Below, piece by piece: positions 5,019 through 45,307 of a stretch of DNA of 64,000 bases. Both the position numbers and the translations under genes were made by a program. The stretch is from the NCBI GenBank assembly GCA_018656555.1, contig JABHZQ010000012.1:28080-92079 (forward strand), read 5' to 3'. Below the pieces are notes generated by a model. That model had not been told where the DNA came from, did not search any database, and saw nothing but the letters and a program-made list of their open reading frames with translations. Position 1 is the first letter of the stretch. The number at the start of each line of letters is the position of its first letter. The DNA comes from an archaeon. GTDB lineage: Archaea > Nanobdellota > Nanobdellia > SCGC-AAA011-G17 > GW2011-AR17.

Positions 5019-5688
5019 TTGGCAATTGTATATATTTTCATTTCTAATTACCTTATTGGTCTTTTCTTTAGGTTTGTCTATTGGACTTGTTATTGAAAAG
5101 GAAAGATTACAAGAAGTGGATAAAATCAATCTAGAACAACAGGTTGGTTTGAAAAGTCTGCAATTGCAACAGTTATACTTAGAATCAGGGGATGCTAATT
5201 GTGATGCTATGAACAAAATTCTAGAAGCCAATATCCAAGACTTGTTTGAATCTATGAACAGAGTTATTGAATTTAATAAAAAATCTATTATTGATGAAGA
5301 GCTCTTTGACTATCAATTGAGAGACTACTTTTTAACAGAAATGCAATTCTTAATGTTTTCCAAAGAGATAGGGGAAATTTGTGGTAGTGATTCAGTAACA
5401 GTAGTATACTTCTATAATGCAGATGAAACAGATGTTCAAGGAGAAGTATTAGATTATTTGAAGAATATCTTTGATGAGAGACTATCTGTATTTTCTTTTG
5501 ATTCTAATTTTGAAGAAGAACCAATGATCGAGGTTTTATTGGAAAGTGAGGGTGTTGAAGTATTTCCTACTTTGATTGTGAATGATGTTGTGTACTCTGG
5601 TGGATTGGGGGCTGAGGAGTTAAAAGAGATTATTTGTGAGGAATTAGAGGAAAAACCAGTAGAATGCCTAATTGAGACCTTACAGTAA
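5002..5688 (+). CDS. N-terminally membrane-anchored acidic extracytoplasmic protein, function unknown
   Basis: A single N-terminal TM (LYIFSFLITLLVFSLGLSIGLVI), then an acidic soluble domain. Confidence 0.4.
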   Translation: MQRRASWQLYIFSFLITLLVFSLGLSIGLVIEKERLQEVDKINLEQQVGLKSLQLQQLYLESGDANCDAMNKILEANIQDLFESMNRVIEFNKKSIIDEELFDYQLRDYFLTEMQFLMFSKEIGEICGSDSVTVVYFYNADETDVQGEVLDYLKNIFDERLSVFSFDSNFEEEPMIEVLLESEGVEVFPTLIVNDVVYSGGLGAEELKEIICEELEEKPVECLIETLQ

Positions 5689-5705
5689 GCTATTTAAACA
5701 GGTAT

Positions 5706-6221
5706 TTGATTTCTAATGTTATGAAAAGGTTATTAATTTTGTTTGTATTGTTATTAATTGTAGGTTGTACTGGACCTTTGCCAGCTACTCCACAAGCTTC
5801 TGGACCTTATACTAATGCATATTATGGCTTTTCAATTGTACCTCCTGAAGGTTGGTATATTGCAGAAGCATCTCCAGGAGTTAGTTTTCTAGGAGATTAT
5901 GACTATTTAGCTAATATTGTTATTTCTGTTGATGGGGATGCTACAACTTTGCTTGAATATTGGGCAGAAGAAAAAGATAGATTAGAAAGATCTGAAATTA
6001 TGGTTGGAACTCAAACAGATCAAGAATTAATGACAACTGTAAATGGATACACTGCTATTTCTGTAGATTATACTTATACTTTAATTGAGGAAGTTAAAGC
6101 TAGAGAGATTATAATTGTTGAGAATGGTAATGCTTATCTTATTACTTACCAAACAGAAGTTGATATGTTTGATGAACATCTTCAAATGTTTGAAGACAGT
6201 TTAGTTACTTTTTCTATTTAA
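5706..6221 (+). CDS. Lipoprotein (lipobox), unknown function
   Basis: N-terminus 'MKRLLILFVLLLIVGCTG' is a signal peptide with a lipobox Cys. Confidence 0.5.
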   Translation: MISNVMKRLLILFVLLLIVGCTGPLPATPQASGPYTNAYYGFSIVPPEGWYIAEASPGVSFLGDYDYLANIVISVDGDATTLLEYWAEEKDRLERSEIMVGTQTDQELMTTVNGYTAISVDYTYTLIEEVKAREIIIVENGNAYLITYQTEVDMFDEHLQMFEDSLVTFSI

Positions 6222-6772
6222 GTTAAAACTTCTACTAATGCACTAATCATATCACATAAACCTACTCCAGTTAACCATAAGATTATTGCTGGGAAGATTA
6301 AGTTTAAACCTGCCAATAATACAAGAACAACAACTGGTGCAAAACAAGCAATATTAGCATAATTTTCATCCCCCAATCCCCAAGCAATTGCAGTTGTAAG
6401 TCCAGGTAAAGGTATTGGTATTGCTCCAATGATCGCACCCACAACTAAGAAAAATGGAGTTGCTACAATTTTAAGAATCCAATTTGCTTCTGAACTCCAA
6501 AGGATTGCTACCCACAATATTCCAACTAATATAGCTCCAATAATCATGAAACCAATAAGACCAATTACTGTTTCAAAAAGTGCATCACCAACTAAATCTG
6601 TTAAGGCATCTAGCACATCAACTAAAAAACCAAGTATGAATCTAAATTTTTTTAATAAGAAAACTATTACTGCTGCAGTAACAATAAAACTTAAAGTCCA
6701 ACCCCAATTTTTAACAAAGAAAATTAAGATTACAAAAAATAATCCAAGTGTTTCACCAATACACAAATCCAT
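6218..6772 (-). CDS. Small polytopic membrane protein, unknown function
   Basis: 184 aa with 4-5 predicted TM helices and an acidic loop 'LVDVLDALTDLVGDALFE'. Confidence 0.45.
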   Translation of the reverse strand: MDLCIGETLGLFFVILIFFVKNWGWTLSFIVTAAVIVFLLKKFRFILGFLVDVLDALTDLVGDALFETVIGLIGFMIIGAILVGILWVAILWSSEANWILKIVATPFFLVVGAIIGAIPIPLPGLTTAIAWGLGDENYANIACFAPVVVLVLLAGLNLIFPAIILWLTGVGLCDMISALVEVLT

Positions 6773-6818
6773 ATTTTAGTGAAAAGGTTTAAATATTAAT
6801 AAAGTTATTTATTTTTTA

Positions 6819-8174
6819 ATGAAAAAGAGGATGATTAGAGAAGAAATTCTTGATTTTAATAATAGAGGGATGGCTGATGAAGGGAGTGTTGCTGGTGCTG
6901 TAGGTTCTGCTGCAGGTGGATTTTTTAATAAAGTGAGAACATCAAAAACAAATAAGCACCTTAGATCATTAGGTAGTGAAAGTTCTGATGGTGCACCAAC
7001 AGAAAAAAAACCAATAAAATTATCCACCGTTGTAACAATAATTATTATTGCTCTTTTGCTTCCTATTATGTATGTAACTTTTAATGCTTATTCAGGTACA
7101 GAACAAGGAGAGACTCTTTGGTTAAAAATTTCAGATGCTATTAAAGAGTATAATCCAATTAGTTGGTATGGTGATTTAGTTAGTGAGCAAAAAACATTAG
7201 ATGTTTGGAGTTCTGAGACTAATAGAAGTAGTACTATGAAAGGTATAGAATTGGATGGGATGAGTTCTATTAGTGGGGGGACGATACCTCAAGGTTCACA
7301 ATTTGAAGTTGTTTATGATATTGAATATCATGAGATTGGTTCGGATGGGGTGGAAGATGTTAATTTTGAATGTGTTTTGCAAGATGGAGATGATGAAGAT
7401 ATTGTTCATGGAGAAATTATTCCTCAAAAAACTTTTACCTTAAGAAAGAATGATTTTGTAAGTTGTAGAATTCCTTCAGAATATACTCAAGACTTAGATG
7501 GGTCTTTCTCTGTTGTGGGTTGGTTTGAATTTCCTTTTTCAACAGAAGATGTTACATTAAAAGTCTATTATACTACTTCAGATGTATTTGATCAATTAGT
7601 AGAAGATGATGTTGATTTCTTCGATAGGTATGATATTGATGGTGGATCTCCAAGGGCAGTGTATAATGGGGAACCAGTTAGGGTTGCTATAGGTGCTACT
7701 GCTTCAAATCAAGATCAACCAGTAATTGTAGGTAGTGATAGATCTTCCTTCCCCATTTTAGGAATTCATTTAGAGAATGAATGGGCAGGTGAAGTTGTAG
7801 ATATAACAGACATGAAAGTATACTTACCTGAAGGTGTTGAGATTAACGAAGAATTATCTTTAAATCCAGATAGTTTTAGTTGTCCTTTTGAACATTTGGG
7901 AAAATCTGATGGGAAGAATGTTTATAGATTATATAGACCAACAATGGAGGAAATGTTTAAATCTTTGATTGATGCAGAGATTCCTATTTTAGGAGATTCA
8001 AAGTATAGTGAAAATGAAAGGAATTTTAATTGTTGGTTGGATGTAGCTCCTGAATTTGTTGGAAGTTCATTATATAAAGTAGATGAATATAGTGTTAGTT
8101 TAGATTATCTTTATAGAGTAAATGATAAAGAAGATCAAGTGGTTATAAGGGCACCAGGAGAGGTAGTTACATGA
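6819..8174 (+). CDS. Type II membrane / cell-surface protein (cytoplasmic N-terminal tail, one TM, large acidic ectodomain)
   Basis: ~65-aa N-terminal tail, a TM 'LSTVVTIIIIALLLPIMYV', then an acidic ectodomain poor in Lys. Forms a tight operon with the next two lipoprotein genes. Confidence 0.5.
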   Translation: MKKRMIREEILDFNNRGMADEGSVAGAVGSAAGGFFNKVRTSKTNKHLRSLGSESSDGAPTEKKPIKLSTVVTIIIIALLLPIMYVTFNAYSGTEQGETLWLKISDAIKEYNPISWYGDLVSEQKTLDVWSSETNRSSTMKGIELDGMSSISGGTIPQGSQFEVVYDIEYHEIGSDGVEDVNFECVLQDGDDEDIVHGEIIPQKTFTLRKNDFVSCRIPSEYTQDLDGSFSVVGWFEFPFSTEDVTLKVYYTTSDVFDQLVEDDVDFFDRYDIDGGSPRAVYNGEPVRVAIGATASNQDQPVIVGSDRSSFPILGIHLENEWAGEVVDITDMKVYLPEGVEINEELSLNPDSFSCPFEHLGKSDGKNVYRLYRPTMEEMFKSLIDAEIPILGDSKYSENERNFNCWLDVAPEFVGSSLYKVDEYSVSLDYLYRVNDKEDQVVIRAPGEVVT

Positions 8175-9112
8175 AAAGAATAATTTTATTGTTATGTTTA
8201 TTATTGTTAGTAAGTTCTTGTGGCTTTAGTCCAAGTGGTGATTCTGAACAAGAAATAACTGGTTGTCCATATTCATGTAGATCGGGAAGTAGTGGGGTTG
8301 AATTGGAAATCTTAAATCCAGATACTAGTATAGGGGATTCAGAAAAAAGAATTATTCCTGCTGGTTATGAATTCATTCCATCTTTAATTGTGCATGATGA
8401 AGGAATGAGCGATGCGGATGGAGAGGTTTGTGTTACTGGTTTAGACTCTAGTACTTTTTCAGGTGTTGGAGGATGTGATTGTGCTGATTATTATATTGTA
8501 GTTGAAGAAGAGGAAGATTATTTTTTGAATGATCAAGTGGTTGATATATTTCCAGGATATGGTGTTGCTAGTGGTACCGAAGGAGATTACCTTATGACTT
8601 TTATTAATAGATATAAGTATAAGACTTATGCAGTTGTTGATGCTTGTTTAAAACAAGATCCAGCAGATAAAGAAGGTTGCTCTTCTAGTGGAAGTATTTT
8701 GGATGTTTCATCTAGTGCACCATTAACTGTTAAAAGTGTAGATCAAACAATTACAAGACCCGGACAGGGAACTAATGCGATTAATTTAATTCTAACTTAT
8801 GAAGTAAGTGCAAAAGGCAATGCTGGTTCTGGTTTGATAAATGATGAAGTTTTATTTAGTGGATTGTGTTATGATCCTAATGATGAAGATCCTTGGATTG
8901 ATGTTAAATTTGTTATTTTAAACCAAGAGTATAGTTGTGAATCAATACAACTAATAGCTGGAGAGGGAACTGGAAGTTGTATTGCTGATTCAATTATTAC
9001 TGAAGGTAGCTCTGGAGAATATCTATTTGAAGATCAAAGTACTCACCAAGGATACTTAGAATTTAGTTATTTATGGGAAGATATAGAGACTGTAGAGTTT
9101 AGAGTACAATAG
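8171..9112 (+). CDS. Cys-rich lipoprotein, unknown function
   Basis: 'MKRIILLLCLLLLVSSCGFS' lipobox, many Cys, acidic. Overlaps the upstream gene by 4 nt (ATGA). Confidence 0.5.
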   Translation: MKRIILLLCLLLLVSSCGFSPSGDSEQEITGCPYSCRSGSSGVELEILNPDTSIGDSEKRIIPAGYEFIPSLIVHDEGMSDADGEVCVTGLDSSTFSGVGGCDCADYYIVVEEEEDYFLNDQVVDIFPGYGVASGTEGDYLMTFINRYKYKTYAVVDACLKQDPADKEGCSSSGSILDVSSSAPLTVKSVDQTITRPGQGTNAINLILTYEVSAKGNAGSGLINDEVLFSGLCYDPNDEDPWIDVKFVILNQEYSCESIQLIAGEGTGSCIADSIITEGSSGEYLFEDQSTHQGYLEFSYLWEDIETVEFRVQ

Positions 9113-9161
9113 AAAGTTTAATAAATAAATATTGCCATTTTAAATCAAAGGAGGGTTTGCT

Positions 9162-10082
9162 ATGAAACTAAAAAATTATACTATTGCTGTTATTTTACTT
9201 GGAATCTTATTCATAAGTGGATGTGGGGGTCAGACTACAACTACAACTGAAGGTTATTATGGTTGTTTTTCTGGAGAGACTTCAATGATTGATGCTTATT
9301 TCTATGAATATGCACCTTTTAGTTCTGAAGCAAGTCCATATAGACCTGGAGAGGAGATTGATGTTAATGTTATTTTAGAAAATAAAATGCCTGAAGATCT
9401 AGATGCTGGAAAGGTTATGATTAGATTGAAAGGTGATGCTGCAATTGAATCCATTTTTACAGGTTCTAGTATTGTAGAAAATCCATCATTATATTCTATT
9501 GATAAAGATACTTGCACTGTTTCTGATGAAGAGGTTGAATTAGGTCCTCTTCTTTATGAACCTGAATTGACTACTAAAATTACTAAAGAAATTGCAGGTA
9601 CTTATTGTTATGAACATCCTGTAGAAGTTCATGGTTATTTATTCTTTACAGAAGATCCTACTGAAGTGGGTGTAAATTTACCATCTGGTGCAAATCCACC
9701 ATCTGGTGTACAAGTTACTGCAATTGAGCAAGATCCAGTTGATGTTTCTGGTGATGGTCAAACTGCTACATTAAGATTTAAAGTTTATATCCAAAATGTA
9801 GGAACTGGAACAATTGTAGATACTTTGGATGATTGTTTTGCCTATAGAGAATTAGGATATAGAGAAACCTTGAATGTAGAAGTTGATACTGCTTATGATG
9901 AGCAGGATTGTACTGAAGAGATAAGGTTATCTAAGGATGCACAAGAAGATGTAATTACTTGTGAAGTTACTGGAATTGATCCAAATAATCTTGGACCTCA
10001 ATCAAGTGAATTAACTGTTACTTTGAATGGTTTTGCTTATGAGGATGAGATTACTGGTGTAGATATCTGGTTAGAACCTTAA
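9162..10082 (+). CDS. Lipoprotein, unknown function
   Basis: 'MKLKNYTIAVILLGILFISGCGGQ' lipobox; an acidic extracytoplasmic protein. Confidence 0.5.
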   Translation: MKLKNYTIAVILLGILFISGCGGQTTTTTEGYYGCFSGETSMIDAYFYEYAPFSSEASPYRPGEEIDVNVILENKMPEDLDAGKVMIRLKGDAAIESIFTGSSIVENPSLYSIDKDTCTVSDEEVELGPLLYEPELTTKITKEIAGTYCYEHPVEVHGYLFFTEDPTEVGVNLPSGANPPSGVQVTAIEQDPVDVSGDGQTATLRFKVYIQNVGTGTIVDTLDDCFAYRELGYRETLNVEVDTAYDEQDCTEEIRLSKDAQEDVITCEVTGIDPNNLGPQSSELTVTLNGFAYEDEITGVDIWLEP

Positions 10083-10158
10083 TTTTTCTTTTATTTATTT
10101 TATATTAAAGAAATTCTTATAAAGGGTAGCAATATTGGGTTGATTGAGGGAAGATTTT

Positions 10159-11145
10159 ATGAATGGATTAAAATATGAAGATATTCTAGCAAAAATAGAA
10201 AAAGAGAAAGGTTTGTCTAAGACTGAAGTTGAAGATAAGATTAAAGAGAAACTAAAACAGTTATCAGATCTTATTTCTAAAGAGGGTGCAGCCCATATTA
10301 TAGCTAATGAATTAGGTGTTAAGTTATTTGATGTAGGCATTAAGAAAGCTAAAGTTAACCAATTGAATACTATGTTAAAAGGTGTGGAATTGGTGGGGAA
10401 GGTTATTAATATTTATGAGATAAGAGAATTTAAAGTTGCTGCCAGAGAAGGGAGAGTTGTTAATATGTTGGTGGGGGATGAGACGGGTTCTTGTAGATTG
10501 GTTTTATGGGATGAAAAACAGATCAAAGAAGTTGAGGAAGGAAAGCTTAAGGTTGGAGATGTTGTAAGAGTTAGTAATTGTTATGTTAAAGAAAATAATA
10601 GAGGTTATATGGAACTTCATATGGGTAAGAATGGTGAATGGGTGATAAATCCAGAAGGGGAAAGTATTGAAGTAAAAAGTTTTTCTGAGGCTGAAAGGAA
10701 AAATATTAAAGATTTGAAAGAGAATGATAATGCTACACTTGTAGGTACATTAGTTCAAGTTTTTGAACCTAGATTCTATGATTCTTGTCCAGAATGTAGT
10801 AAGAAAGTAGAATACAAGGATGATGGATTTTATTGTGCGGCACATGGCAAGGTGGAGAGTAAACCCCAAGGAGTTTTGAATCTTGTTTTTGATGATGGTA
10901 CAGATAATATTAGAATTGTGTGCTTTAGAGATAATGTTAACAAAGTTCTTGAAGTTGAGGATGTTGTTGATTTGAAAGAAAATCATGAGAAGTTCAATGA
11001 AATCCAAAGAAAAGTAGCAGGTAGACAATTAGAAATTTCTGGAAGAGTTACTAAAAATGATTTCTTTGATAGATTAGAGATGGTTGCAAATTCTGTTAAG
11101 GAAGCAAATCCAAAGGCTTTAGCTATGGAGTTAAAGGAAAATTGA
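10159..11145 (+). CDS. rpa: Replication protein A (archaeal RPA/SSB, OB fold plus C-terminal Zn ribbon)
   Basis: N-terminus '…LSKTEVEDKIKEKLKQLSDLISKEGAAHIIANELGV' is typical of archaeal RPA. An OB fold 'RVVNMLVGDETGSCRLVLWDEK' follows, then a Zn ribbon 'CPECSKK…YCAAHGK'. The ORF track begins at an upstream TTG; the first ATG is at 10159. Confidence 0.65.
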   Translation: MNGLKYEDILAKIEKEKGLSKTEVEDKIKEKLKQLSDLISKEGAAHIIANELGVKLFDVGIKKAKVNQLNTMLKGVELVGKVINIYEIREFKVAAREGRVVNMLVGDETGSCRLVLWDEKQIKEVEEGKLKVGDVVRVSNCYVKENNRGYMELHMGKNGEWVINPEGESIEVKSFSEAERKNIKDLKENDNATLVGTLVQVFEPRFYDSCPECSKKVEYKDDGFYCAAHGKVESKPQGVLNLVFDDGTDNIRIVCFRDNVNKVLEVEDVVDLKENHEKFNEIQRKVAGRQLEISGRVTKNDFFDRLEMVANSVKEANPKALAMELKEN

Positions 11146-11166
11146 AAAGTATAGAAAAAGTTTAAA

Positions 11167-12429
11167 TTAAGATGTGATTTCTATTTCTCCATAAGTATAA
11201 TCTTCGTGGATATCTAGATTATACATTGTTTGGTAATCTAATGGAATTATTGATACTCCGTTGTTATTCCCCCCATTAGCAGAGAATAAATAACTATTTT
11301 GTACTGTTAATTCTCTTGATTGATATTCATCTCTAAATATGTATGCGGTTAATCCTTCAGCAGTATAGTAGGAAGGATTATCCAGAGGGTCTAGTCCTGC
11401 TAGAATATCATACATCACATCTTGATAGGGATCGGCATCAACTAAAGGAAAGACTATCAAATCACCATAGGAATTTTCTAGTTGGGTAATTGAATCATCA
11501 TCACCTAAATCTCCACAAATTACAGGTATTATTGTAAATATATTTCCATGTAAATCTATTAGATCATAAGCTTGTATTGTTGGTAATGCTTCCATTCTAA
11601 TATCTTCACATAGGGCTGGTTCTTCATTACATCCTATGTCTCCTTCTATGTAAAAGTCATAAGGTGAAGATTTTCTTTGTTTACCAATAATATCTCCATT
11701 TCTATCTAGGATCAATAAGGTATTGTAAGAAATATCATAACCATTTACTACAGATCTTTCTGCAACAGTTCCTAATACTATGTACACATGATATTGTTGT
11801 GCAAGATTTTGTATGGAACTAATATAATCTACTAATTGATCACTCTCTTGTGTTCCAATTGAAGAAATAGTGCAAGGAGTAGTTTGGCAATCTACAATAA
11901 CTGGATTATCTTGGTGAGTTTGGTCTTGATAAAATATGTACTCTGGTGTTAATATCAAATCTAATTCTTGGTGGTTTGTTAGTACTGAATCAAATTTTGC
12001 TTCTAAGTTAGTAAATGAATAATCATTATTAGATAAATTTATACCTGCTATTTTTACTAAGGGTGTTGTACATGCCCCATTTTCACAAATTGTTCCTGTT
12101 GGACAATTAGATCTATGAAATTGCATCCATTCACTGTCAAAACAGAAATATTCTACTATCTGACCTTGATAGGGTCCCCAATTTATGCACCTATCAGTAA
12201 ATGTTTTAGCCCCTGCAACTCCATATCTGCCTGAAGTTGTTCCTTGGTTTTCTAGATCTAATCCACCATCTGTTTCTATACAAAGGATGTTTTCATTCTG
12301 AATTCCATTTTTAATTAAATCAAAAATATTTAAACCAATTATTTGATTATCTGATAGACCAAATAATCCAGCCGATACTAATGGAAGAGATAATATGATT
12401 ATGAACAGAACTAAAATCTTCTTTTTCAT
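11167..12429 (-). CDS. Secreted Cys-rich protein with a C-terminal nitrilase-superfamily (CN-hydrolase) domain
   Basis: Signal peptide 'MKKKILVLFIIILSLPLVSA'; a Cys-rich N-terminal module. The C-terminal half carries an ordered E/K/C triad in nitrilase-like context ('LILTPEY', 'YNTLLILDRNGDIIGKQRKSSPYDF', 'FTIIPVICGDL'). Confidence 0.5.
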   Translation of the reverse strand: MKKKILVLFIIILSLPLVSAGLFGLSDNQIIGLNIFDLIKNGIQNENILCIETDGGLDLENQGTTSGRYGVAGAKTFTDRCINWGPYQGQIVEYFCFDSEWMQFHRSNCPTGTICENGACTTPLVKIAGINLSNNDYSFTNLEAKFDSVLTNHQELDLILTPEYIFYQDQTHQDNPVIVDCQTTPCTISSIGTQESDQLVDYISSIQNLAQQYHVYIVLGTVAERSVVNGYDISYNTLLILDRNGDIIGKQRKSSPYDFYIEGDIGCNEEPALCEDIRMEALPTIQAYDLIDLHGNIFTIIPVICGDLGDDDSITQLENSYGDLIVFPLVDADPYQDVMYDILAGLDPLDNPSYYTAEGLTAYIFRDEYQSRELTVQNSYLFSANGGNNNGVSIIPLDYQTMYNLDIHEDYTYGEIEITS

Positions 12430-15100: not shown

Positions 15101-16027
15101 TTATCTTCGCACGATTAAGATCAATGCTAGGATAACAATCAATACCGCTAAGATACCGAATCCTAACTTAAGTGCTGTTGAGAAGTCTTTTGTTTCTTCT
15201 TCAGAATCAGCATCTGTTACTGTAACAGTAACTTCGCCTTCATCAGCTTCAGCACCTTCGACGTTCAATGTAATAGAGTCTGAAACAACACTATATCCAT
15301 TGTTATATGTAACAGTTACATCCAGTGTGTATGATGCTGTAGCAGCTTCATCGCCAACTTGGAAATTTAGGGTTACATCGCCTGAGGATTCTTCATCTTC
15401 GTTATCGACTTCAGGTAGGGTGTACAACTCGTCTAAGTAAGTTGCAACATCAACACCAAGCTCTGTGCTTGAAACTTCTACCTTGATATCTTCTTCTTTA
15501 TTGTCACCTTGGTTTTCTAATCTAACTGTAACTGATGCATAATCACCAGCTTCAACTGAATTGTCAACCAAAATGTCTTGAATTCTCACATCATGTCGAG
15601 CATTACTTACTCTCAATGTTGCTTCTTCTCTCACATAGTCTTCATCATCATATGCTTCCACATATAAAGTGTAGTCTTGTTCAGAGTCCATATCATTAGG
15701 TAATTCTAAGTAAAGTGTTTTCTTATAGGAAACACCATCTTCAATATCAAACATACTTGATGTAGCTTGAACAGTTGAATATTCATATCCACCTAGCCAT
15801 GTCTTAACGTTAACATCGGTTGTTTCGCCAAGACCTTCAAGGTAAACTTCAACTGCAATAGTTGCGCCTTCTTCTACGTAGACTGTGTTTGCGTATGATA
15901 AATCATCAACTTTGATATCAGTGATTTCATAGTTGGTTGATTCAGCAGCTAGTGCTGGAACGCATAACAGGCATAGTACAAACATTATTGCAAGTACAAT
16001 TTTTTTCATTTTATATTTGACCTCCAA
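15101..16027 (-). CDS. Acidic cell-surface (S-layer-like) protein with a signal peptide and a PGF-CTERM-like C-terminal anchor
   Basis: Signal peptide 'MKKIVLAIMFVLCLLCVPALA', a highly acidic Thr-rich body, and C-terminus '…TVTVTDADSEEETKDFSTALKLGFGILAVLIVILALILIVRR' (Gly-Phe, TM, then RR). Confidence 0.5.
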   Translation of the reverse strand: MEVKYKMKKIVLAIMFVLCLLCVPALAAESTNYEITDIKVDDLSYANTVYVEEGATIAVEVYLEGLGETTDVNVKTWLGGYEYSTVQATSSMFDIEDGVSYKKTLYLELPNDMDSEQDYTLYVEAYDDEDYVREEATLRVSNARHDVRIQDILVDNSVEAGDYASVTVRLENQGDNKEEDIKVEVSSTELGVDVATYLDELYTLPEVDNEDEESSGDVTLNFQVGDEAATASYTLDVTVTYNNGYSVVSDSITLNVEGAEADEGEVTVTVTDADSEEETKDFSTALKLGFGILAVLIVILALILIVRR

Positions 16028-19211: not shown

Positions 19212-19838
19212 ATGGTATCTGATGAAAAGGTAATGGAAATTGCAAAGGCGCTGCAGGGTTTGAGCCCTGAAGAGCAACAAGATAAATTCAATGAGTTAGT
19301 TCAGGGTTTGAGCCCTGAAGAGCAAAAAGAGGTTATTGAGAAATTAACTGGTGGTAATGGTGGAGGGGGAGAGTGTCCTTTTTGTGGTATGGTAGAGGGA
19401 AAAATTCCTGTGAAGAAGGTTTATGAAGATAATAAAGTAATGGCAATTTTGGATATTAATCCAGCTACAAAAGGTCATGTATTAGTTTTTCCAAAGAAAC
19501 ATGTTGCACTTATGACTCAACTTGATGAAACTATTGCAGGACATTTGTTTGATGTAGCCAATAAATTAAGTGGTATTTTATTCGAAGAGCTTGGTGCTCA
19601 AGGAACAAATGTTGTTGTTTCTAATGGTGCTATTGCTGGTCAGAAGGCTCCACACGCATTGATTAATATTATACCTCGGTTCGAAGGAGATAAAGTTGCT
19701 ATTAGTTGGCAAGGTGAGAAAGCAGAGGAAGGAGATCTTGAGGAAGTGAGAGAGAAGATCTCTAATCGGGCCAAAAATATATCTATGAGTGAACCAAAAG
19801 AAGAGAAATTTGTTGAAGAAGAACCTAGAATCCCATAA
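19212..19838 (+). CDS. HIT-family protein with a degenerate histidine triad and an N-terminal duplicated 16-aa motif
   Basis: 'CPFCGMVEGKIPVKKVYEDNKVMAILDINPATKGHVLVFPKKHV' is a classic HIT N-terminal half. The triad position reads 'APHALINIIPR' instead of HxHxHxx. Confidence 0.55.
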   Translation: MVSDEKVMEIAKALQGLSPEEQQDKFNELVQGLSPEEQKEVIEKLTGGNGGGGECPFCGMVEGKIPVKKVYEDNKVMAILDINPATKGHVLVFPKKHVALMTQLDETIAGHLFDVANKLSGILFEELGAQGTNVVVSNGAIAGQKAPHALINIIPRFEGDKVAISWQGEKAEEGDLEEVREKISNRAKNISMSEPKEEKFVEEEPRIP

Positions 19839-20673
19839 TTGATACTAAAATAGTAACGATTGTTGCTATTAACATTGCAGGGACAAAAGGAATACCTATC
19901 TTTACCCATGCATTTCTTATTTTATTCTTTTTCATTAATTTAATATCTTTTAGAGTTAAGCAAGGGTGTTTTTTTGAAATTAAAACTTTATTTTTATAAT
20001 AAACATCTTTTGCTAACCAATCTCCTTCAGTTACTCTTTCTAATGGAAGTTGCTTGATAAACGATAGTTTCTCTACAATCTTTACAAATATACTAATATA
20101 GAAATAAGCCATTAGGAAAAGAGCTAAGATAATTAGTAATGCTTTTATTGTTAAGATAGGAATTAGTATACTTGAAATTAAAATCATAACTGCTATCATA
20201 AGTATTATGTTCCTTAATCTTCTTTTTTTTATTAATTCTTTTTTTAGTAAGGGGTTTGCTTTCTTTCTATTTTTAAAATATAGTACTATTGCAAAAATTA
20301 ACCCATAAAGACCTCCAATGATTATTACATTTAAAAAAAGTATTAGCAAGAAGGGCAAAGTTAGATTGGAAAAATAAGGTGCTGTTCCAAATGCAGCCCC
20401 AAATCCCATCAAAAGCTTTGCATCTGCTCCACCCCATTGTTTTGTTCTATACATTATAAGAGCTATTATGAACATTATTCCAAACCCTAGTAATCCATAT
20501 AGGAAGAAAGTGTACTCTCTTGTGATTATAGAATGTATTAATCTTATGACTAAAGCTATGACAATTAAGCCGATTGTTAGGTTATCTGGTACTTCTCTGG
20601 TTCTTAGATCCCATATAGAGGATATAATCAAAATAAGTAGTGCAACTGAAATTAAGATAATGTCTGTGATCAT
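19825..20673 (-). CDS. A24-family aspartic peptidase (prepilin/preflagellin peptidase, PibD/FlaK-like) with a C-terminal extension
   Basis: Polytopic protein. The first Asp motif is 'SSIWDLRTREVPDNL' and the second is 'KQWGGADAKLLMGFG' (GGxDxKL). Confidence 0.6.
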   Translation of the reverse strand: MITDIILISVALLILIISSIWDLRTREVPDNLTIGLIVIALVIRLIHSIITREYTFFLYGLLGFGIMFIIALIMYRTKQWGGADAKLLMGFGAAFGTAPYFSNLTLPFLLILFLNVIIIGGLYGLIFAIVLYFKNRKKANPLLKKELIKKRRLRNIILMIAVMILISSILIPILTIKALLIILALFLMAYFYISIFVKIVEKLSFIKQLPLERVTEGDWLAKDVYYKNKVLISKKHPCLTLKDIKLMKKNKIRNAWVKIGIPFVPAMLIATIVTILVSIMGF

Positions 20674-37848: not shown

Positions 37849-38938
37849 AACTAAGCTAAAAATCAGAAGATTAGCTAAAGATGTTGTAAGAGATATTGAT
37901 AAACATAGTAATCCTTCTATTGAAATTCCAATTAGAGCTTTATCTAATGTTCATTTTAATGAAAAAAAGAGTATTATTGAACTAGGAAAGGAAACTCAAC
38001 AAAGATATTTCTTTAATGTTGGTCAAGCAAAGAAATTTATGCAAACTATACTTATTGCAAGTGCTTGTGATGAACTCCTTGATTCAGGTAAAACTACATC
38101 TATTAGGGACCTATACTACATGACTAAGCATACTATTGGTAAGAGTAAAGAAAATACTTTTGATGACCAGGCTGAATCTGATCCTATTATTGAAGATTTA
38201 GAGGTTACAATTGATTCCTTAAGAGAAGAATTAAACTTATTTGCTTCAAATAGGGGAGCCATGGTTGGACCAATGAAAGTAATTGATTATGGTATTAATA
38301 AGAAAGGAGATCAAATTGATTTAGCAAGGATGGGGTCTGGGGGTTGGTCTATACCTTCTATTGTTGAAGAGGATATAATTGAATTCAAAGATTGTAAAGC
38401 TAAGTTTATTTTAATGGTTGAGAAAGATGCGGTTTGGAGAAGGTTAAATGAAGATGGGTTTTGGAAGAAGCATAATTGTTTGTTAATTCATGGTCAAGGG
38501 ATGGCTCCAAGAGGGGTAAGAAGATTATTACATAGGTTAGTAAATGATTACAAACTACCTATGTATGTATTTGTTGACCAGGACCCTTGGGGATTGTATA
38601 TCTATTCTGTTATCAAACAAGGAAGTATTAATTTGGCTTATGAGAGTCAGAGGATGGCAGTACCATCTGCTAAGTTTATTGGGTTGAGTGCTTTTGATAA
38701 AGAGAAATATAAATTACCAGACAATGTTACAATTAAACTAAATGAACAAGATAAGTCAAGAGCTAAACAGATTCTTAATTATCCTTGGTTTCAGAAAAAA
38801 AGTTGGCAAAAGGAATTAAAGCAGATGCTGAAAAATGGTTTTAAGTTAGAGTTAGAGGCTTTAAGTGCTAAAGGAATTAGTTTTGTAACAGACAAATATT
38901 TGCCTGAAAAACTTAAAAATAAAGATTGGTTGGATTAA
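37817..38938 (+). CDS. top6A: DNA topoisomerase VI subunit A (Spo11-like)
   Basis: Winged-helix region and a Toprim domain '[10 protein letters not shown]…[16 protein letters not shown]…VFVDQDPWG'; overlaps top6B by 32 nt. Confidence 0.85.
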
Positions 38939-40800
38939 GCTGCTTTATCCATTTGTTCTCTTATCTCTTCTGCAGCGTGTTCATAGCCACCAAGTCCAAG
39001 AGTTAAAGTATAATCACTAGTCTCACCATCTCCTTCTGTAGCTTCATCTTCTGTAGGCTCTTGAGGTTCTTCTCTTAATTCATTTAATAATTCTACAGCC
39101 ATCCTATCAAGTGGATTTCTTTTTAGATCTCTATAGATTGTTGAATTTGAAATACCATAATCTGTAGCTAATCTACTTACAATTCCTGCCTCGCCTCTTT
39201 CTAACATCTCTTTGTAAGCTTCTTGAACTTCTAAAGCTCTTTGATCAACATATTCACCCTTCACATCTGAGTAAGTTTTACCACAAGTATCTTTCATATG
39301 TTCTCTTAGATCATTTTCATCTACACCTGCAAAATTTGCAATTTGGTAGAATTTAAATTGTGATACTGTTTCTTCATCACAAGCCTTCATCATTCCAGCT
39401 TCTAATCTTGAATCATAATCAATTGTTCGAGGTATGGTGATTCCTGATTCTTCATAATGGTTCCACATACCATCAACTAAGCCATCTAATTCTCCATCGG
39501 ATTCAATACTTCCATCAAATAATGGGCTTTCAAATTGTGCTAATGCTCTTTCTGAAACAATTAGATTGTATAAATATTCAAATTCTGTGGACAGTTCTTG
39601 CATTGCATAACCATCACCTGTTGAACTTGTATCTGGAAGTTGTATATCACCAAGAGCATCTTCTAAGTCTATCCCAAAAACAAATAGTTCTTGATTAGGC
39701 ACAATATGAACATGAGGTACTCCTTCTCTATCTTCAATTTCTAATTGATTATCATGAGCAACCTGTTTCCAATCTACACCATATTGTTTTGCAATTTCTG
39801 CAAGAGTATCTCCTTTTGCAACTTTGTGAGTTGTTGAATTAATAGGTAATTGAACTTCTTGATTGGTATATATCCAGTGAGTATTTTCGATTTCACTAAC
39901 ACTTGCAACATGTCTTTCCATTGCTTGGGTAAATGGATTTCTATATAGTTTACCAGTATGTTCTTTTAAAATTCTGGATAGGATCTCTCCTTTTTGAACA
40001 GAATGGGTAAGATATCTTTCTGATTCTGGAACATCTGAAGGTGGTGTGTAAGAATCTGCTTGCATTAATTCTTCTGCAGTTGCTAAAGCATGTTCTAAAG
40101 TAACAAGAATATGTTCATGGGTTGGTGTTGGTGGGATTATTAAATCATCTGCTGGATCACATTCACCATATAATTCATCAATAGCTGGTGTTGTTAAAAC
40201 TGGTTCATAAACCTCATCATCAAAACATTCACCAATAACAGTTACTCCACCAACAGTTAAGGATCTTGTTTCAGCTATTGTAGCCAAATCAGCTGTTGGA
40301 TTTGTTAATCTTCTTTGTGAATTAGGAAGTGTGATTTGAGAAGGTTTTGGACCCTCTGTGAGTAAAGAAGTATCATATCTTCTACCTTCAGGAATGGGAT
40401 TTAATTCTGAATCATCTACTGTTACTGTTAGTTCTGGAGGGTTTTGAGCTCTATAAATTCCTAAAGCTGTACCTACTGCTAATAAAGTTCCAAAAAGTAA
40501 ACCCCCAATTCTTCTCCTACTTCTTTTTCTTTGAATATAATCTGTTTGTGCAAGTTCTGATTCAGTAGCTCTGGCATCAATTTGATCTTCAAATTCATCT
40601 ACTGCAGTTGTAGCAGAAGTATGAGATGTTAGTGCATCTCCTTCAGCAAATACTTGTTGTTCAAGATCATCATAACCATCTGTATCAGCTGCATTAGAAA
40701 CTTCGGCCTCAACTGCTGCCATTCCACCAGTAATAGTTTTATCTACAGGTTTACCTCCACCTAAAGCCCTATCTTCTGGTTTCTCATCTTTCATATTCAA
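38935..40800 (-). CDS. Single-pass membrane protein with a large extracytoplasmic region containing a LysM domain and an IS30-like HTH-like motif
   Basis: Acidic N-terminal ~95 aa, then 'QRKRSRRR' and a TM 'IGGLLFGTLLAVGTALGIY'. LysM 'HKVAKGDTLAEIAKQYGVDWKQVAHDNQL' (nt ~39690-39830). Near the C-terminus, 'VSRLATDYGISNSTIYRDLKRN' (nt 39121-39180) resembles IS30-family transposase HTH motifs. Confidence 0.55.
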   Translation of the reverse strand: MNMKDEKPEDRALGGGKPVDKTITGGMAAVEAEVSNAADTDGYDDLEQQVFAEGDALTSHTSATTAVDEFEDQIDARATESELAQTDYIQRKRSRRRIGGLLFGTLLAVGTALGIYRAQNPPELTVTVDDSELNPIPEGRRYDTSLLTEGPKPSQITLPNSQRRLTNPTADLATIAETRSLTVGGVTVIGECFDDEVYEPVLTTPAIDELYGECDPADDLIIPPTPTHEHILVTLEHALATAEELMQADSYTPPSDVPESERYLTHSVQKGEILSRILKEHTGKLYRNPFTQAMERHVASVSEIENTHWIYTNQEVQLPINSTTHKVAKGDTLAEIAKQYGVDWKQVAHDNQLEIEDREGVPHVHIVPNQELFVFGIDLEDALGDIQLPDTSSTGDGYAMQELSTEFEYLYNLIVSERALAQFESPLFDGSIESDGELDGLVDGMWNHYEESGITIPRTIDYDSRLEAGMMKACDEETVSQFKFYQIANFAGVDENDLREHMKDTCGKTYSDVKGEYVDQRALEVQEAYKEMLERGEAGIVSRLATDYGISNSTIYRDLKRNPLDRMAVELLNELREEPQEPTEDEATEGDGETSDYTLTLGLGGYEHAAEEIREQMDKAA

Positions 40801-40919
40801 AAAAACTTAATATCTTATATTTAAACCTTTCTATGTTTATTAACTAAAAAGTGAGAACATTCTGGGATTTAGAGTCAATAGAAACGTTTTTAAAGCAAAT
40901 CAATTTTAAGGAAATTTAT

Positions 40920-40992
40920 GTCCCTGTAGCTCAGTTGGTGGAGCATTCGGCTGTTAACCGAAAGGTCGCAAGTTCGAGTCTTGCCGGGGACG
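40920..40992 (+). tRNA. tRNA-Asn (anticodon GTT)
   Basis: Folds as acceptor GTCCCTG/CGGGGAC, D-arm GCTC/GAGC, anticodon stem TTCGG/CCGAA with loop CTGTTAA, T-arm GCAAG-TTCGAGT-CTTGC, discriminator G. No encoded CCA. Confidence 0.85.
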
Positions 40993-40995
40993 TAT

Positions 40996-41070
40996 GGCCC
41001 CGTGGCTTAGCCTGGCTAGAGCACTCGACTGATAATCGAGAGGTCCTGGGTTCAAATCCCGGCGGGGCCA
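40996..41070 (+). tRNA. tRNA-Ile (anticodon GAT)
   Basis: Acceptor GGCCCCG/CGGGGCC, anticodon stem CTCGA/TCGAG with loop CTGATAA, T-arm CTGGG-TTCAAAT-CCCGG, discriminator A. Lies 3 nt after tRNA-Asn. Confidence 0.85.
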
Positions 41071-41077
41071 GATTCTA

Positions 41078-42919
41078 TTAACAGATTTTAGCACCAGTTT
41101 CAATATCTTGGTCTGGTTGTAATAGAGATACTTTTTTCTTGAATTCTGCTGCAAGAAGCATTCCATTACTTTCTATTCCTCTAATTTTGGTAGGTTGAAG
41201 ATTGGTAAATACAACTATCTTTTTTCCCACTAAATCCTTAAGTTTATAGTCATCCTTAAGACCTGAAACAATTTGTCTAGGGTTTTCTCCTTTACCCATA
41301 TCAACAAGTAGAACATAAAGTTTGTCTGCATCGGGATGCTTTTCTGCTTTTTTTACTTTCCCAACTCTAATTTGCATTTTTTCCCATTCTTTAAATGGAA
41401 TATAATGTCCAGCTTCTGGAGTAGATATAACTTGAGTTTCTTTATTCATTTTTTTCTCTCCTTCAATTTTAGTAAATAAGTATCCTGATTTTTTTACTTT
41501 ATTATTTCCCAATAATCCAAATTTAATATCTTTGAATGTTTCTTTTTTCTTTAATCCTAATTGTTGTTTAATTGTTTTTGCAGTATTGGGCATGAATGGT
41601 TCAATCAAAATAGAGATCACTCTTAGTGATTCTGCTAGATTGTATAAGATTATTTCAAGTTTTTTAGTATTGTTCTTTGCTAATTCCCATGGTTTGTTAT
41701 CATTTATGTATTTATTACATTCATTGATAAATTTCCAAATTTCATTTAAGGCATTATGTAATTCATAATTTAACATGTGATTATTTATTTTTTTGAAGTT
41801 TAATTTTTTAAATAATTCATTTTTATTTGTTCTTGGGATTTTTCCATTGAAATACTTTTCAATCATAGTTATTGTTCTTGATTGTAGGTTTCCTAGATCA
41901 TTCATTAATTCATTGTTATGTCTTTGATTTAGGGCATTTATAGAGAAGGTACCATCATGACCAAAGGGTATTTCTCTTAATAAAAAATATCTAATTGAAT
42001 CTGTAGGGTAGGTTTTTGCAAGTTCAAAGGGGTCTATTACATTTCCAATAGACTTGCTCATTTTTACTCCTCCTTCTGCATTTATGAAACCATGCACTAC
42101 TAATTTTTTTGGAGGTTTAATCCCTGCTGCATAGAGCATTGATAACCAGATAACAGAATGATGCCACATAATATCATGAGAAGTTACATGTGCAGCTGCT
42201 GGCCAGTACTTTGTTTTATCAACCCCAGAGGGATAATTTAGTAATGCATCGAACCAAACATAAGCAACATGTTTTTTATCAAAAGGTAGAGGGATACCCC
42301 ACTTAACCTTTTCTCTGGATATACAAAGGTCTTTTATTCCATCTTTCATTCTTTTTAATAGGAAAGTCTGTCTTTGTTTAGGAATTATATAATTATTATC
42401 TTTGATATATTTTTCAACTTTTTTTGCATATTTACTCATTTTAAAGAAATAAGATTCTTCTTCAAACCACTCTACTTTTCTCTTGTGTATTGGACAACAT
42501 CCATCTTCTAAATCTTTTTCATTGTAGTAAGTTTCACAATCTACACAATACCATCCTTCATACTTGCCCTTGTAAATATCTCCATTATCATAGACTTTTT
42601 GTAGAACCTCTTGACAATATTTTTCATGCTTTTTATCTGTTGTTCTTAGGAAATTATCATATTCCATTGAATAGAGTTTTGCTAATTTTTTAAATTCTGG
42701 GACTAATTTATCAACAAATTGTTTGGGGGTTATTCCTTCTTTTTCAGCCACCCTTTCAATTTTTTGACCATGCTCATCAGTTCCTGTTTGTAAAAATACA
42801 TCATCTCCTAGAAGTTTGTGCCATCTAGCTATTGTGTCTGACACTATATTTGTGTAGCAATGCCCTATGTGGGGCTTTCCTGAAGGGTAATATATTGGAG
42901 TTGTAATGTAGTATTTCAT
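41078..42919 (-). CDS. metG: Methionyl-tRNA synthetase with a C-terminal EMAP-II/Trbp111-like tRNA-binding domain
   Basis: 'PHIGHCYT' (HIGH), 'KMSKSIGN' (KMSKS), Zn knuckles 'CVDCE…CCPIH'. The C-terminal OB domain includes 'KLYVLLVDMG…IVSGL'. Confidence 0.9.
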   Translation of the reverse strand: MKYYITTPIYYPSGKPHIGHCYTNIVSDTIARWHKLLGDDVFLQTGTDEHGQKIERVAEKEGITPKQFVDKLVPEFKKLAKLYSMEYDNFLRTTDKKHEKYCQEVLQKVYDNGDIYKGKYEGWYCVDCETYYNEKDLEDGCCPIHKRKVEWFEEESYFFKMSKYAKKVEKYIKDNNYIIPKQRQTFLLKRMKDGIKDLCISREKVKWGIPLPFDKKHVAYVWFDALLNYPSGVDKTKYWPAAAHVTSHDIMWHHSVIWLSMLYAAGIKPPKKLVVHGFINAEGGVKMSKSIGNVIDPFELAKTYPTDSIRYFLLREIPFGHDGTFSINALNQRHNNELMNDLGNLQSRTITMIEKYFNGKIPRTNKNELFKKLNFKKINNHMLNYELHNALNEIWKFINECNKYINDNKPWELAKNNTKKLEIILYNLAESLRVISILIEPFMPNTAKTIKQQLGLKKKETFKDIKFGLLGNNKVKKSGYLFTKIEGEKKMNKETQVISTPEAGHYIPFKEWEKMQIRVGKVKKAEKHPDADKLYVLLVDMGKGENPRQIVSGLKDDYKLKDLVGKKIVVFTNLQPTKIRGIESNGMLLAAEFKKKVSLLQPDQDIETGAKIC

Positions 42920-44318: not shown

Positions 44319-44882
44319 ATGAAAAATAAAATAATTATAGGAATAATCCTTTTGTCTTTAGTTTTTGTTGTAGGCTGTGCTCAAGAAGAACAGGTGCAAC
44401 AATACAGTTTAGGAGATTTAGATTATAAACTCGGAGAAGTTGTTGTTGGTTTTCCCGAAGGAATGGATAAAACAGAAGCTCAAGCTTTAATCGATTCTTA
44501 TGAATTAGAACTTGAATCTTGGTCTCCAAGAGATTTTACTACTATTAATCTGGTTGTTAATGAAGAATATCCTTCTGTATTAGAAAATCATGAAAGAATT
44601 GGTAGTTTAGAACAAATAGAGGGAAATGAGTATACTGTTTATTTTTATATTGAAGATTTTAATAATTTAAAACTTTCTGAAGTTGAGGAAATACTCTCTG
44701 AATTTGATGTTGAGATTATAGAGGATGAACATTACACAGAAGTTATGTCTGTAGAATGGGGAGTTTTAATTGTTTCAGAAGGTTCTGAGGTTGAATGGGT
44801 TAATACTCTTCAAGAGGATCCAAACTTTAAATATGTAGAACTAAACTATCTAGTTGAGTTGGAGGATGATGTTTTAGAATGA
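44319..44882 (+). CDS. Acidic lipoprotein, unknown function
   Basis: 'MKNKIIIGIILLSLVFVVGCAQ' lipobox. Confidence 0.45.
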   Translation: MKNKIIIGIILLSLVFVVGCAQEEQVQQYSLGDLDYKLGEVVVGFPEGMDKTEAQALIDSYELELESWSPRDFTTINLVVNEEYPSVLENHERIGSLEQIEGNEYTVYFYIEDFNNLKLSEVEEILSEFDVEIIEDEHYTEVMSVEWGVLIVSEGSEVEWVNTLQEDPNFKYVELNYLVELEDDVLE

Positions 44883-45307
44883 ATAAAATATATTTTTTAA
44901 GTTTTTTATTGATTTTCTTAGTTGGTTGTACTTGTTCTCAGGGTTTTCTTACCTACACTGGAGAAGAATTAGAACTTGATGAATTTGAAATAAGAAAAGA
45001 AAAAGTAGAAGTTAATCTTAATTTATTAGAAGAAGATAGAGTTAATATTGACCTTTTTGGTACAGAATATGTTATGATTAAAGAGAAAGTGGAATATAAT
45101 GAATTGAGTGATTCTTATTCTTGGCATGGAGAGTTAGAAGGGGAGTCATCTTCTTCTATAATTATAGTCTATGATGAAGACTCACTTGTAGGTAATATTT
45201 GGAACTATCTCCCAGGGGCAGTGTATACATACAAAATAGAAGGGAGTTTAGAAGAGGGATTTAGTTTGTCCGAAATTGATCAAAGTTTGATTACTGGTGA
45301 GGATTAA
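44879..45307 (+). CDS. Acidic lipoprotein, unknown function
   Basis: 'MNKIYFLSFLLIFLVGCTCSQG' lipobox; overlaps the upstream gene by 4 nt. Confidence 0.45.
   Translation: MNKIYFLSFLLIFLVGCTCSQGFLTYTGEELELDEFEIRKEKVEVNLNLLEEDRVNIDLFGTEYVMIKEKVEYNELSDSYSWHGELEGESSSSIIIVYDEDSLVGNIWNYLPGAVYTYKIEGSLEEGFSLSEIDQSLITGED

Follow-up and report, generated by a model that had tools for sequence, protein, structure and literature searches.

What does an archaeon do with a membrane protein that carries LysM modules and a helix-turn-helix (HTH) motif on the same side of its only transmembrane (TM) helix, and on which face of the membrane does that side lie? The question is posed by a minus-strand gene, here termed the LysM/HTH gene, in a 64,000-nucleotide stretch of contig JABHZQ010000012.1 (the window, to which positions refer unless a contig is named; features are collected in Table 1). 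It is unusual for a LysM and an HTH fold to share one face of a lone TM helix, and the arrangement means either an extracellular HTH or an intracellular archaeal LysM. The gene is fast-evolving and specific to a marine or aquatic clade of Woesearchaeota, and we consider the chances even that its product binds glycans at the cell surface with type II topology, which makes it a candidate adhesin; its topology, ligand and adhesin role are what we infer from the observations below. Residue numbers follow the 619-aa form of the product, whose M1 lies at window position 40794. Public annotation already lists the gene as a LysM protein, the 100% identical P0001 being named 'LysM peptidoglycan-binding domain-containing protein [archaeon]'.

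Tandem LysM modules and an HTH signature

The second of two LysM modules (LysM-2) is significant by profile search. It scored 39.2 bits against Pfam PF01476 (E 6.6e-10), well above the gathering score of 20.9, which confirms the clear LysM module that an earlier note had read from the letters of the window. LysM-2 also matches solved LysM chains in PDB, and its orthologues score 43-53 bits against the same profile. Its last strand is preceded by an insertion of 12 residues (EIEDREGVPHVH), for which reason the alignment covers only profile positions 1-29 of 43. A low-confidence AlphaFold2 (AF2) model, with a predicted local distance difference test (pLDDT) score of ~55, places a strand-helix-helix-strand order at residues 321-364. 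The insertion itself (residues 353-364, 39703-39738, minus strand) ends in H-V-H-I; it is kept in the family members P0002 and P0003 and absent in P0004 and P0006, and it might change ligand specificity or bind metal.

The first module (LysM-1) is degenerate and scored weakly by itself (E 0.098). The segment aligned to it in P0004 and P0006 is a full-length LysM match (profile positions 2-43 of 43), and residues 249-367 match a phage endolysin double-LysM wall-binding module (phrog_291, E 9e-9). A tandem of LysM modules is thus supported by orthologue matches and by phage endolysin binding modules, and the pair is predicted to bind glycans containing N-acetylglucosamine (GlcNAc). Viral contigs match the LysM region only.

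The C-terminal half of the protein bears the motif V539-N560 (VSRLATDYGISNSTIYRDLKRN), which had been likened to the HTH of IS30-family transposases. The HTH likeness stood and the IS30 specificity did not. In the protein as a whole the motif drew sub-threshold generic matches only, to SpoIIID (E 0.006), HTH_psq (0.036), HTH_11 and HTH_7, and HTH_38 (PF13936, IS30-type) gave no match at E<=10. Among the orthologues, HTH_38 scored 14.4 bits in P0002 and 22-23 bits in P0004 and P0006, against a threshold of 27, and HTH_7 reached 23.4 bits in the same columns of distant orthologues, against a threshold of 23.8. When the C-module was searched alone, the best E values were 2.3e-5 for HTH_7 and 2.7e-5 for HTH_38, and HTH_11 and SpoIIID were matched in four of five members, SpoIIID aligning locally to the HTH motif. 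An AF2 model of the C-module built from five sequences gave pLDDT 70-81 across residues ~458-563, and both the sequence signature and the probable tri-helical fold of a generic HTH were found; the model of the full-length protein from two sequences (pLDDT 34) was unusable, and Foldseek searches of PDB and BFVD returned no significant match. Given the profile matches of the orthologues and the C-module and the five-sequence model, V539-N560 is, on profile evidence, a genuine HTH signature, and the unit around it probably has an HTH fold. Its likeness to IS30 is real but generic by these scores, since HTH_7, SpoIIID, HTH_11 and sigma region 4 score alike.

The signature [IV]S-x-[ST]T[IV]YRDLKR[ND]P is near-invariant in four of six family members (the LysM/HTH protein, P0002, P0004 and P0006), although P0004 and P0006 are only ~25% identical to the LysM/HTH protein overall. 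The ratio of nonsynonymous to synonymous substitution rates (dN/dS) against P0002 is 0.126 for segment 511-575, the most constrained part of the protein, and the HTH is present in frame in 6/6 members. The earlier note had named, as one outcome that would count against it, an origin of the HTH stretch as the remains of another, truncated gene; these data refute that idea, the stretch being the most conserved part of the protein. No DDE (rve-type) domain was found in Pfam, NCBIfam or PHROG scans, and the protein is therefore not a transposase.

Membrane anchor and predicted sidedness

An acidic N-tail, the stretch QRKRSRRR and one TM helix, all proposed earlier, were confirmed (net charge -16; residues 88-95; hydrophobic residues 96-114). 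The hydrophobic segment has a mean Kyte-Doolittle value of 1.78, and the next-highest peak in the protein is 1.05. Throughout the family (6/6), the TM helix is preceded by 15 residues with 3-7 Lys+Arg and 0-2 acidic residues and followed by 15 with 1-2 Lys+Arg and 1-4 acidic residues; all six members also have N-tails of 95-381 aa that contain no hydrophobic signal or signal peptide. One TM helix, the lack of a cleavable signal peptide and a K/R excess on the N-terminal flank thus recur throughout (6/6), predicting a type II (signal-anchor) single-pass protein. By the positive-inside rule the N-tail is probably cytoplasmic and residues 115-619 probably lie outside. The placement of both LysM and HTH beyond the membrane, as first proposed, is therefore a prediction that the charge asymmetry of the TM helix favours in every member.

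Composition was examined against the proteome of the window, which is sharply bimodal: where a signal peptide or lipobox is present, the isoelectric point (pI) is ~4.05 and the Lys content 2-4%, and most cytoplasmic proteins have a pI of 9-10 and 12-18% Lys. The LysM/HTH protein, with a pI of 4.35 and 3.4% Lys, lies near the former, in keeping with a surface location. Acidic surface proteins are encoded at 5002-12429, 44319-45307 and 15101-16027 (minus strand), with lipoboxes such as LLLVSSCG, LFISGCGG and VFVVGCAQ; most of the acidic surface proteins of the window have no Pfam family, and 15101-16027 codes for an Ig/CARDB-like surface protein anchored by a C-terminal TM segment. Conserved disulfides were considered as evidence of an outside location and set aside as not decisive, since the C472/C504 pair is found in 4/6 members.

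The charge of the HTH unit (net -1 to +2) and of its surroundings (net -2 to -9 for the enclosing module, -7 to -14 for the tail behind it) bears on a different reading, in which the protein is a membrane-tethered DNA-binding or regulatory protein whose C-terminal part is cytoplasmic, the LysM modules acting intracellularly as ligand- or protein-binding modules. Conservation of the HTH signature, in the segment under the strongest constraint, would suit such a protein, as would the existence of intracellular LysM proteins. It would, however, have the charge asymmetry opposite to that observed in 6/6 members, demand the export of acidic N-tails of 95-381 aa that lack a signal peptide, and place a near-neutral HTH, within an acidic module and tail, among cytoplasmic proteins of which most have a pI of 9-10. 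Such acidic surroundings are unlikely for a DNA-binding domain where cytoplasmic proteins are mostly strongly basic, and we regard this reading as improbable.

A narrow family, its evolutionary rate and the proposed role

The family consists of six proteins in five Woesearchaeota-type genomes. P0002 is the syntenic orthologue in L001, at 72% identity, and sits in a metagenome-assembled genome (MAG) of Candidatus Woesearchaeota, which bears out the suspected DPANN host; P0004 is the orthologue in L011. An exhaustive profile search of 1.84 billion cluster representatives gave just three further proteins with matches extending beyond LysM, namely P0003, P0004 and P0006, and a genome scan for further members added only L011. 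The sixth member is a tandem paralogue beside P0003 (L093:10157-11914); positions 8001-11914 of L093 encode P0003 (703 aa) and then the 585-aa paralogue of the same plan, on an 841-kb contig that is probably most of a genome. All six share an acidic N-tail (95-381 aa), a K/R cluster, one TM helix, two LysM modules, a helical/HTH module and, at the end, an acidic tail. No new members came from word-indexed searches with A3 or A4, two alignments of the family, and a metagenome scan with A3 found none; the two negatives obtained with A3 do not mean absence, since the word-indexed one missed even the identical P0001, probably a limitation of the tool, and P0001 itself occurs on JGI contigs. None of 80 metagenome loci with a more distant topoisomerase VI A (Top6A; 57-91% identity) carried a family member, nor did these loci keep the same downstream neighbour. 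As far as these comparisons reach, the family does not extend beyond a narrow clade.

Within that clade the gene stays in place and changes fast. The slot between methionyl-tRNA synthetase (MetRS), tRNA-Asn/tRNA-Ile and topoisomerase VI (Top6A, then Top6B) is occupied by the family in all five genomes, and the gene is single-copy except for the tandem duplication in L093. Between the window and L001 the LysM/HTH protein is 72% identical and the neighbouring genes are 91-98% identical; between the window and L011 the corresponding values are 19-29% and 79-89%. Against P0002 the gene has dN 0.199, dS 0.654 and dN/dS 0.30, compared with dN/dS 0.02-0.06 for neighbour genes. The dN/dS of 0.30 indicates that the gene is coding and under purifying selection, and the contrasts in identity and dN/dS mark it as a fast-evolving gene within a very conservative neighbourhood, one that evolves about 10 times faster than its neighbours. 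Constraint is lowest in the juxtamembrane stalk (115-185; dN/dS 0.63), and the value of 0.37 for the N-tail indicates that this tail is translated. Fast evolution of stalk and tail fits an interface protein, as it does many surface and host-interaction proteins.

The strict synteny also speaks against a recent acquisition of the gene or its derivation from a mobile element, whether as an IS30 remnant or as part of a tRNA-linked island. Two adjacent tRNA genes, the IS30-like motif and a GC content slightly above that of the neighbours all invite this explanation. The slight GC-richness was indeed measured (0.355 versus 0.30-0.32), but a foreign origin did not follow from it: GC at third codon positions (GC3) is 0.116, below that of the neighbours, and the excess is carried by Ala, Gly, Thr, Asp and Glu codons, so that it reflects amino-acid composition rather than gene transfer. 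The same slot is moreover filled in five genomes whose neighbouring genes are 79-98% identical, there is no DDE or integrase domain, and the matches of viral contigs stop at the LysM region. We therefore rejected horizontal transfer or a mobile origin, which is effectively refuted.

One further sequence was set aside as family evidence. In P0008 (77 aa), a lipoprotein-type signal peptide precedes 45 residues identical to the end of the LysM/HTH protein (window 38938-39072). P0008 comes from a single 1805-bp contig (L092), whose upstream 533 bp have no counterpart in the window; its two parts meet in a GAAGAACC (Glu-Glu-Pro) repeat, and it is probably an assembly chimera.

As a surface glycan-binding protein, the LysM/HTH protein would work as follows. 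The acidic, disordered N-tail would stay in the cytoplasm, and the K/R cluster and the glycine-rich TM helix would anchor the protein. The acidic stalk would carry outward the two LysM modules and a helical module ending in the HTH fold, followed by the acidic tail. The LysM pair would bind an external GlcNAc-containing glycan, most likely the peptidoglycan of a partner (or a chitin-like glycan), and this binding would tether the small archaeon to the partner's surface; the HTH-fold module would not serve as a DNA-binding domain in the cytoplasm but would contact a second, conserved partner. A partner's peptidoglycan is the favoured ligand because small-genome Woesearchaeota and Pacearchaeota are reported to carry extracellular proteins directed at murein, with bacteria proposed as their hosts, partners or prey (PMC8204110, PMC9723730; see also PMC12352652), and the binding or degradation of bacterial walls by them is already put forward in PMC8204110 and PMC9723730.

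The main rival to a tether between organisms keeps the same topology and makes the protein an organiser of the archaeon's own envelope, the LysM pair binding a GlcNAc-containing polymer or glycoprotein glycans of the cell itself and anchoring a capsule or wall layer. The window holds a possible source of such a ligand. Positions 2485-3744 (plus strand) encode a 419-aa membrane glycosyltransferase of family 2 (GT2) with the processive-synthase hallmarks DAD, TED and QRVRW, whose best match is the PgaC/IcaA poly-beta-1,6-GlcNAc synthase (E 3e-46) and which also matches NodC, Chitin_synth_2 and CelA. This GT2 might produce a GlcNAc polymer of the archaeon's own, and because of it such a polymer is a live alternative ligand. 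A gene that is single-copy (tandem in L093) and strictly syntenic among housekeeping genes in five genomes would also fit a structural core gene. On the other side, a dN/dS about 10 times that of the neighbours and the length variation of tail and stalk are more typical of proteins that face another organism, and the score of the GT2 is far under the equivalog cut-off (158 versus 422 bits). We hold the self-envelope role to be unlikely, though a serious competitor. On either side of the GT2 gene, multi-TM proteins resembling glycosyltransferases are encoded at 65-1111, 1038-2483 and 3738-5018. Elsewhere in the window, 19825-20673 (minus strand) encodes a type IV prepilin-like peptidase (Peptidase_A24, E 6e-16), which implies, as far as the family assignment goes, pili or an archaellum-type surface filament in the organism.

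If the HTH does face outward, it could be an HTH from the transposase, resolvase or sigma region 4 world that is reused outside the cell, beside LysM, as a ligand-binding module, for example for extracellular nucleic acid or an anionic wall polymer; this we consider rather doubtful. A narrower form makes the protein a surface receptor for extracellular nucleic acid, in which the exposed HTH would catch DNA or RNA at the wall of a partner while the LysM modules dock, serving nucleotide scavenging. It would draw on the HTH fold predicted on the outer face and on the view, expressed in PMC8204110, that the smallest-genome DPANN live on scavenged nucleotides. The acidic context of the HTH disfavours binding of a polyanion, however, no nuclease or uptake genes are linked at the locus, and the proposal is purely inferential, making it very improbable.

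Several observations weigh against a surface adhesin that binds another organism. The gene is a strictly syntenic core gene, the PgaC/NodC-like synthase of the same genome could make a self ligand, and no hydrolase or secretion genes are linked to the LysM/HTH gene at the locus. The ligand of LysM-2 may also be non-canonical, because its ligand loop bears the insertion. The topology is drawn from the positive-inside rule and composition only. A log-odds composition score that separates the two classes in the window (secreted +0.06 to +0.21, cytoplasmic -0.10 to -0.34) gave +0.059 for residues 115-619, +0.066 for the N-tail and values near zero for the LysM and HTH segments; as the presumably cytoplasmic N-tail also scores secreted-like, the score is unable to settle sidedness. 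HTH domains, moreover, are overwhelmingly cytoplasmic, and LysM is no proof of exposure by itself, because intracellular LysM proteins are known (E. coli Kbp/YgaU, SpoVID, SafA and eukaryotic LysMD).

Gene boundaries, neighbours and known systems

Table 1. Features of the LysM/HTH gene, its product and the adjoining tRNA genes.
Feature	Position in window	Strand	Residues	Basis or remark
LysM/HTH membrane protein, coding sequence	38935..40794	-		619 aa from ATG 40794; alternative TTG 40800 gives 621 aa
TATA-box-like element TTTAAATA	40818..40825	-		centre ~27 nt upstream of ATG 40794; read from sequence
tRNA-Asn(GTT) and tRNA-Ile(GAT)	40919..40993 and 40995..41071	+		divergent from the LysM/HTH gene, ~120 nt from its start codon
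Acidic N-tail, net -16, probably disordered, predicted cytoplasmic	40534..40794	-	1-87	charge/composition; dN/dS 0.37
QRKRSRRR, positive-inside determinant	40510..40533	-	88-95	K+R count of TM flanks
Single TM helix IGGLLFGTLLAVGTALGIY, glycine-rich, small-xxx-small motifs common	40453..40509	-	96-114	hydropathy
Acidic Pro/Thr-rich stalk with C190/C212 pair	40015..40452	-	115-260	composition, dN/dS
LysM-1, degenerate, extended second helix	39841..40011	-	~262-318	orthologue alignment, PHROG
LysM-2, clear LysM, 12-residue insertion with HVH in alpha2-beta2 loop	39676..39828	-	323-373	PF01476, PDB LysM chains
Alpha-helical conserved C-module with C472 and C504	39070..39618	-	393-575	profile search, alignment, AF2
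HTH-fold unit (probable)	39097..39252	-	515-566	profiles, AF2, dN/dS of 511-575
HTH core motif	39115..39180	-	V539-N560	profile matches, alignment
Acidic C-terminal tail, net -14, ends in conserved Tyr-containing helix	38938..39069	-	576-619	Y604 invariant

The minus-strand open reading frame (ORF) 38935..40800, of 621 aa if read from TTG, was found in the ORF listing next to the tandem tRNA-Asn and tRNA-Ile genes, as the earlier note had stated, with both tRNAs confirmed and the shorter start preferred. Public gene calls begin at the ATG two codons downstream of the TTG and yield the 619-aa P0001. The position of TTTAAATA relative to this ATG suggests a leaderless transcript, a TATA box at such a distance being the known archaeal promoter geometry for leaderless mRNA, and because the spacing fits this geometry we take 619 aa as the product, which is more likely than the 621-aa form. 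At the other end, the convergent stops of the LysM/HTH gene and Top6A share the 4-nt palindrome TTAA (38935-38938); this overlap is kept in L001, L011 and L095, and there is no terminator between the two genes.

The gene is flanked by topoisomerase VI B and A on one side and by tRNA-Asn, tRNA-Ile and methionyl-tRNA synthetase on the other. The adjacency to tRNA genes, which had seemed worth remarking, is merely conserved gene order: the tRNA pair adjoins the gene in 5/5 family genomes and plays no part in the function of the protein. Two ORFs over the tRNA genes, 40851-41081 (plus strand, 76 aa) and 40954-41166 (minus strand, 70 aa), are spurious, although some public assemblies include the 76-aa ORF among their gene calls (e.g. 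L005 714-944). In L011 (4414-5730), tRNA-Asn and tRNA-Ile are each interrupted by a ~30-nt insertion in the D-arm region, with a 408-aa ORF between them; ARAGORN finds no tRNA in this interval, and the insertions may be non-canonical introns plus an inserted gene.

Few genes in the region combine, as this one does, a binding domain that can be recognised, a location predicted at the surface and interface-like fast evolution, and this makes it a concrete experimental target. The literature searched, with incomplete coverage, does not describe LysM together with DPANN or Woesearchaeota, or LysM with helix-turn-helix in archaea, and it gave no host or attachment mechanism for marine Woesearchaeota. 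A redeployed extracellular HTH, if true, would represent an undescribed kind of surface receptor and a molecular handle on the contact between marine Woesearchaeota and their hosts. For the present, and given a very small family, the gene is a good lead on Woesearchaeota surface biology rather than a demonstrated new system.

Among DNA-binding families, the closest likeness is to the IS30 HTH_38, the resolvase/Hin HTH_7 and SpoIIID, in which GIS-x-ST[IV]YRDLKRN fits the helix-turn-recognition-helix, with orthologue E values of ~1e-4 to 2e-5. The LysM/HTH protein differs from these in that its matches lie below gathering thresholds, it has no transposase or recombinase catalytic domain, its context is acidic and its location is predicted to be extracytoplasmic. 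It does not belong to IS30, as the HTH_38 threshold is not reached, the DDE domain is lacking and the location is fixed in five genomes; nor does the HTH unit, on its predicted outer face and of near-zero charge (net -1 to +2), have the basic cytoplasmic context of a generic DNA-binding HTH. In tethered regulators of the ToxR/CadC and RodZ types, DNA-binding and sensor domains lie across the TM helix from each other and the HTH is cytoplasmic, an arrangement that fails here because both LysM and HTH follow the only TM helix in the chain. ComEA, a bacterial membrane-anchored extracellular DNA receptor, is basic and uses helix-hairpin-helix motifs; it has no homology to the LysM/HTH protein and would share with it an N-terminal anchor and an exposed nucleic-acid-binding helical motif only if the protein were a nucleic-acid receptor.

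The LysM side of the protein has nearer counterparts. Bacterial N-anchored LysM proteins such as B. subtilis YneA, which it would resemble in function, likewise have a signal-anchor TM helix followed by an extracytoplasmic LysM, a likeness that comes in part from a weak NCBIfam match (E 0.003), and residues 249-367 align with the tandem-LysM wall-binding modules of endolysins and autolysins through phrog_291 and the PDB LysM chains. Compared with YneA and the endolysins, the LysM/HTH protein has no catalytic domain, has a long acidic cytoplasmic tail and a helical/HTH module, and occurs in an archaeal host. Plant LysM receptor-like proteins (CEBiP, LYK/LYM) have ectodomain LysM repeats, a single TM helix and a cytoplasmic tail in common with it, and weak matches to LysM3_LYK4_5 (plant LYK) were found; the likeness is one of architecture only, for the plant proteins have the opposite orientation, with an N-terminal signal peptide and the ectodomain first, and the LysM/HTH protein has no kinase and no homology to them beyond LysM. 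By theme, not by sequence, it is finally akin to the peptidoglycan-directed surface proteins proposed for the same lineages, from which it differs in lacking a hydrolase domain, so that it would only bind.

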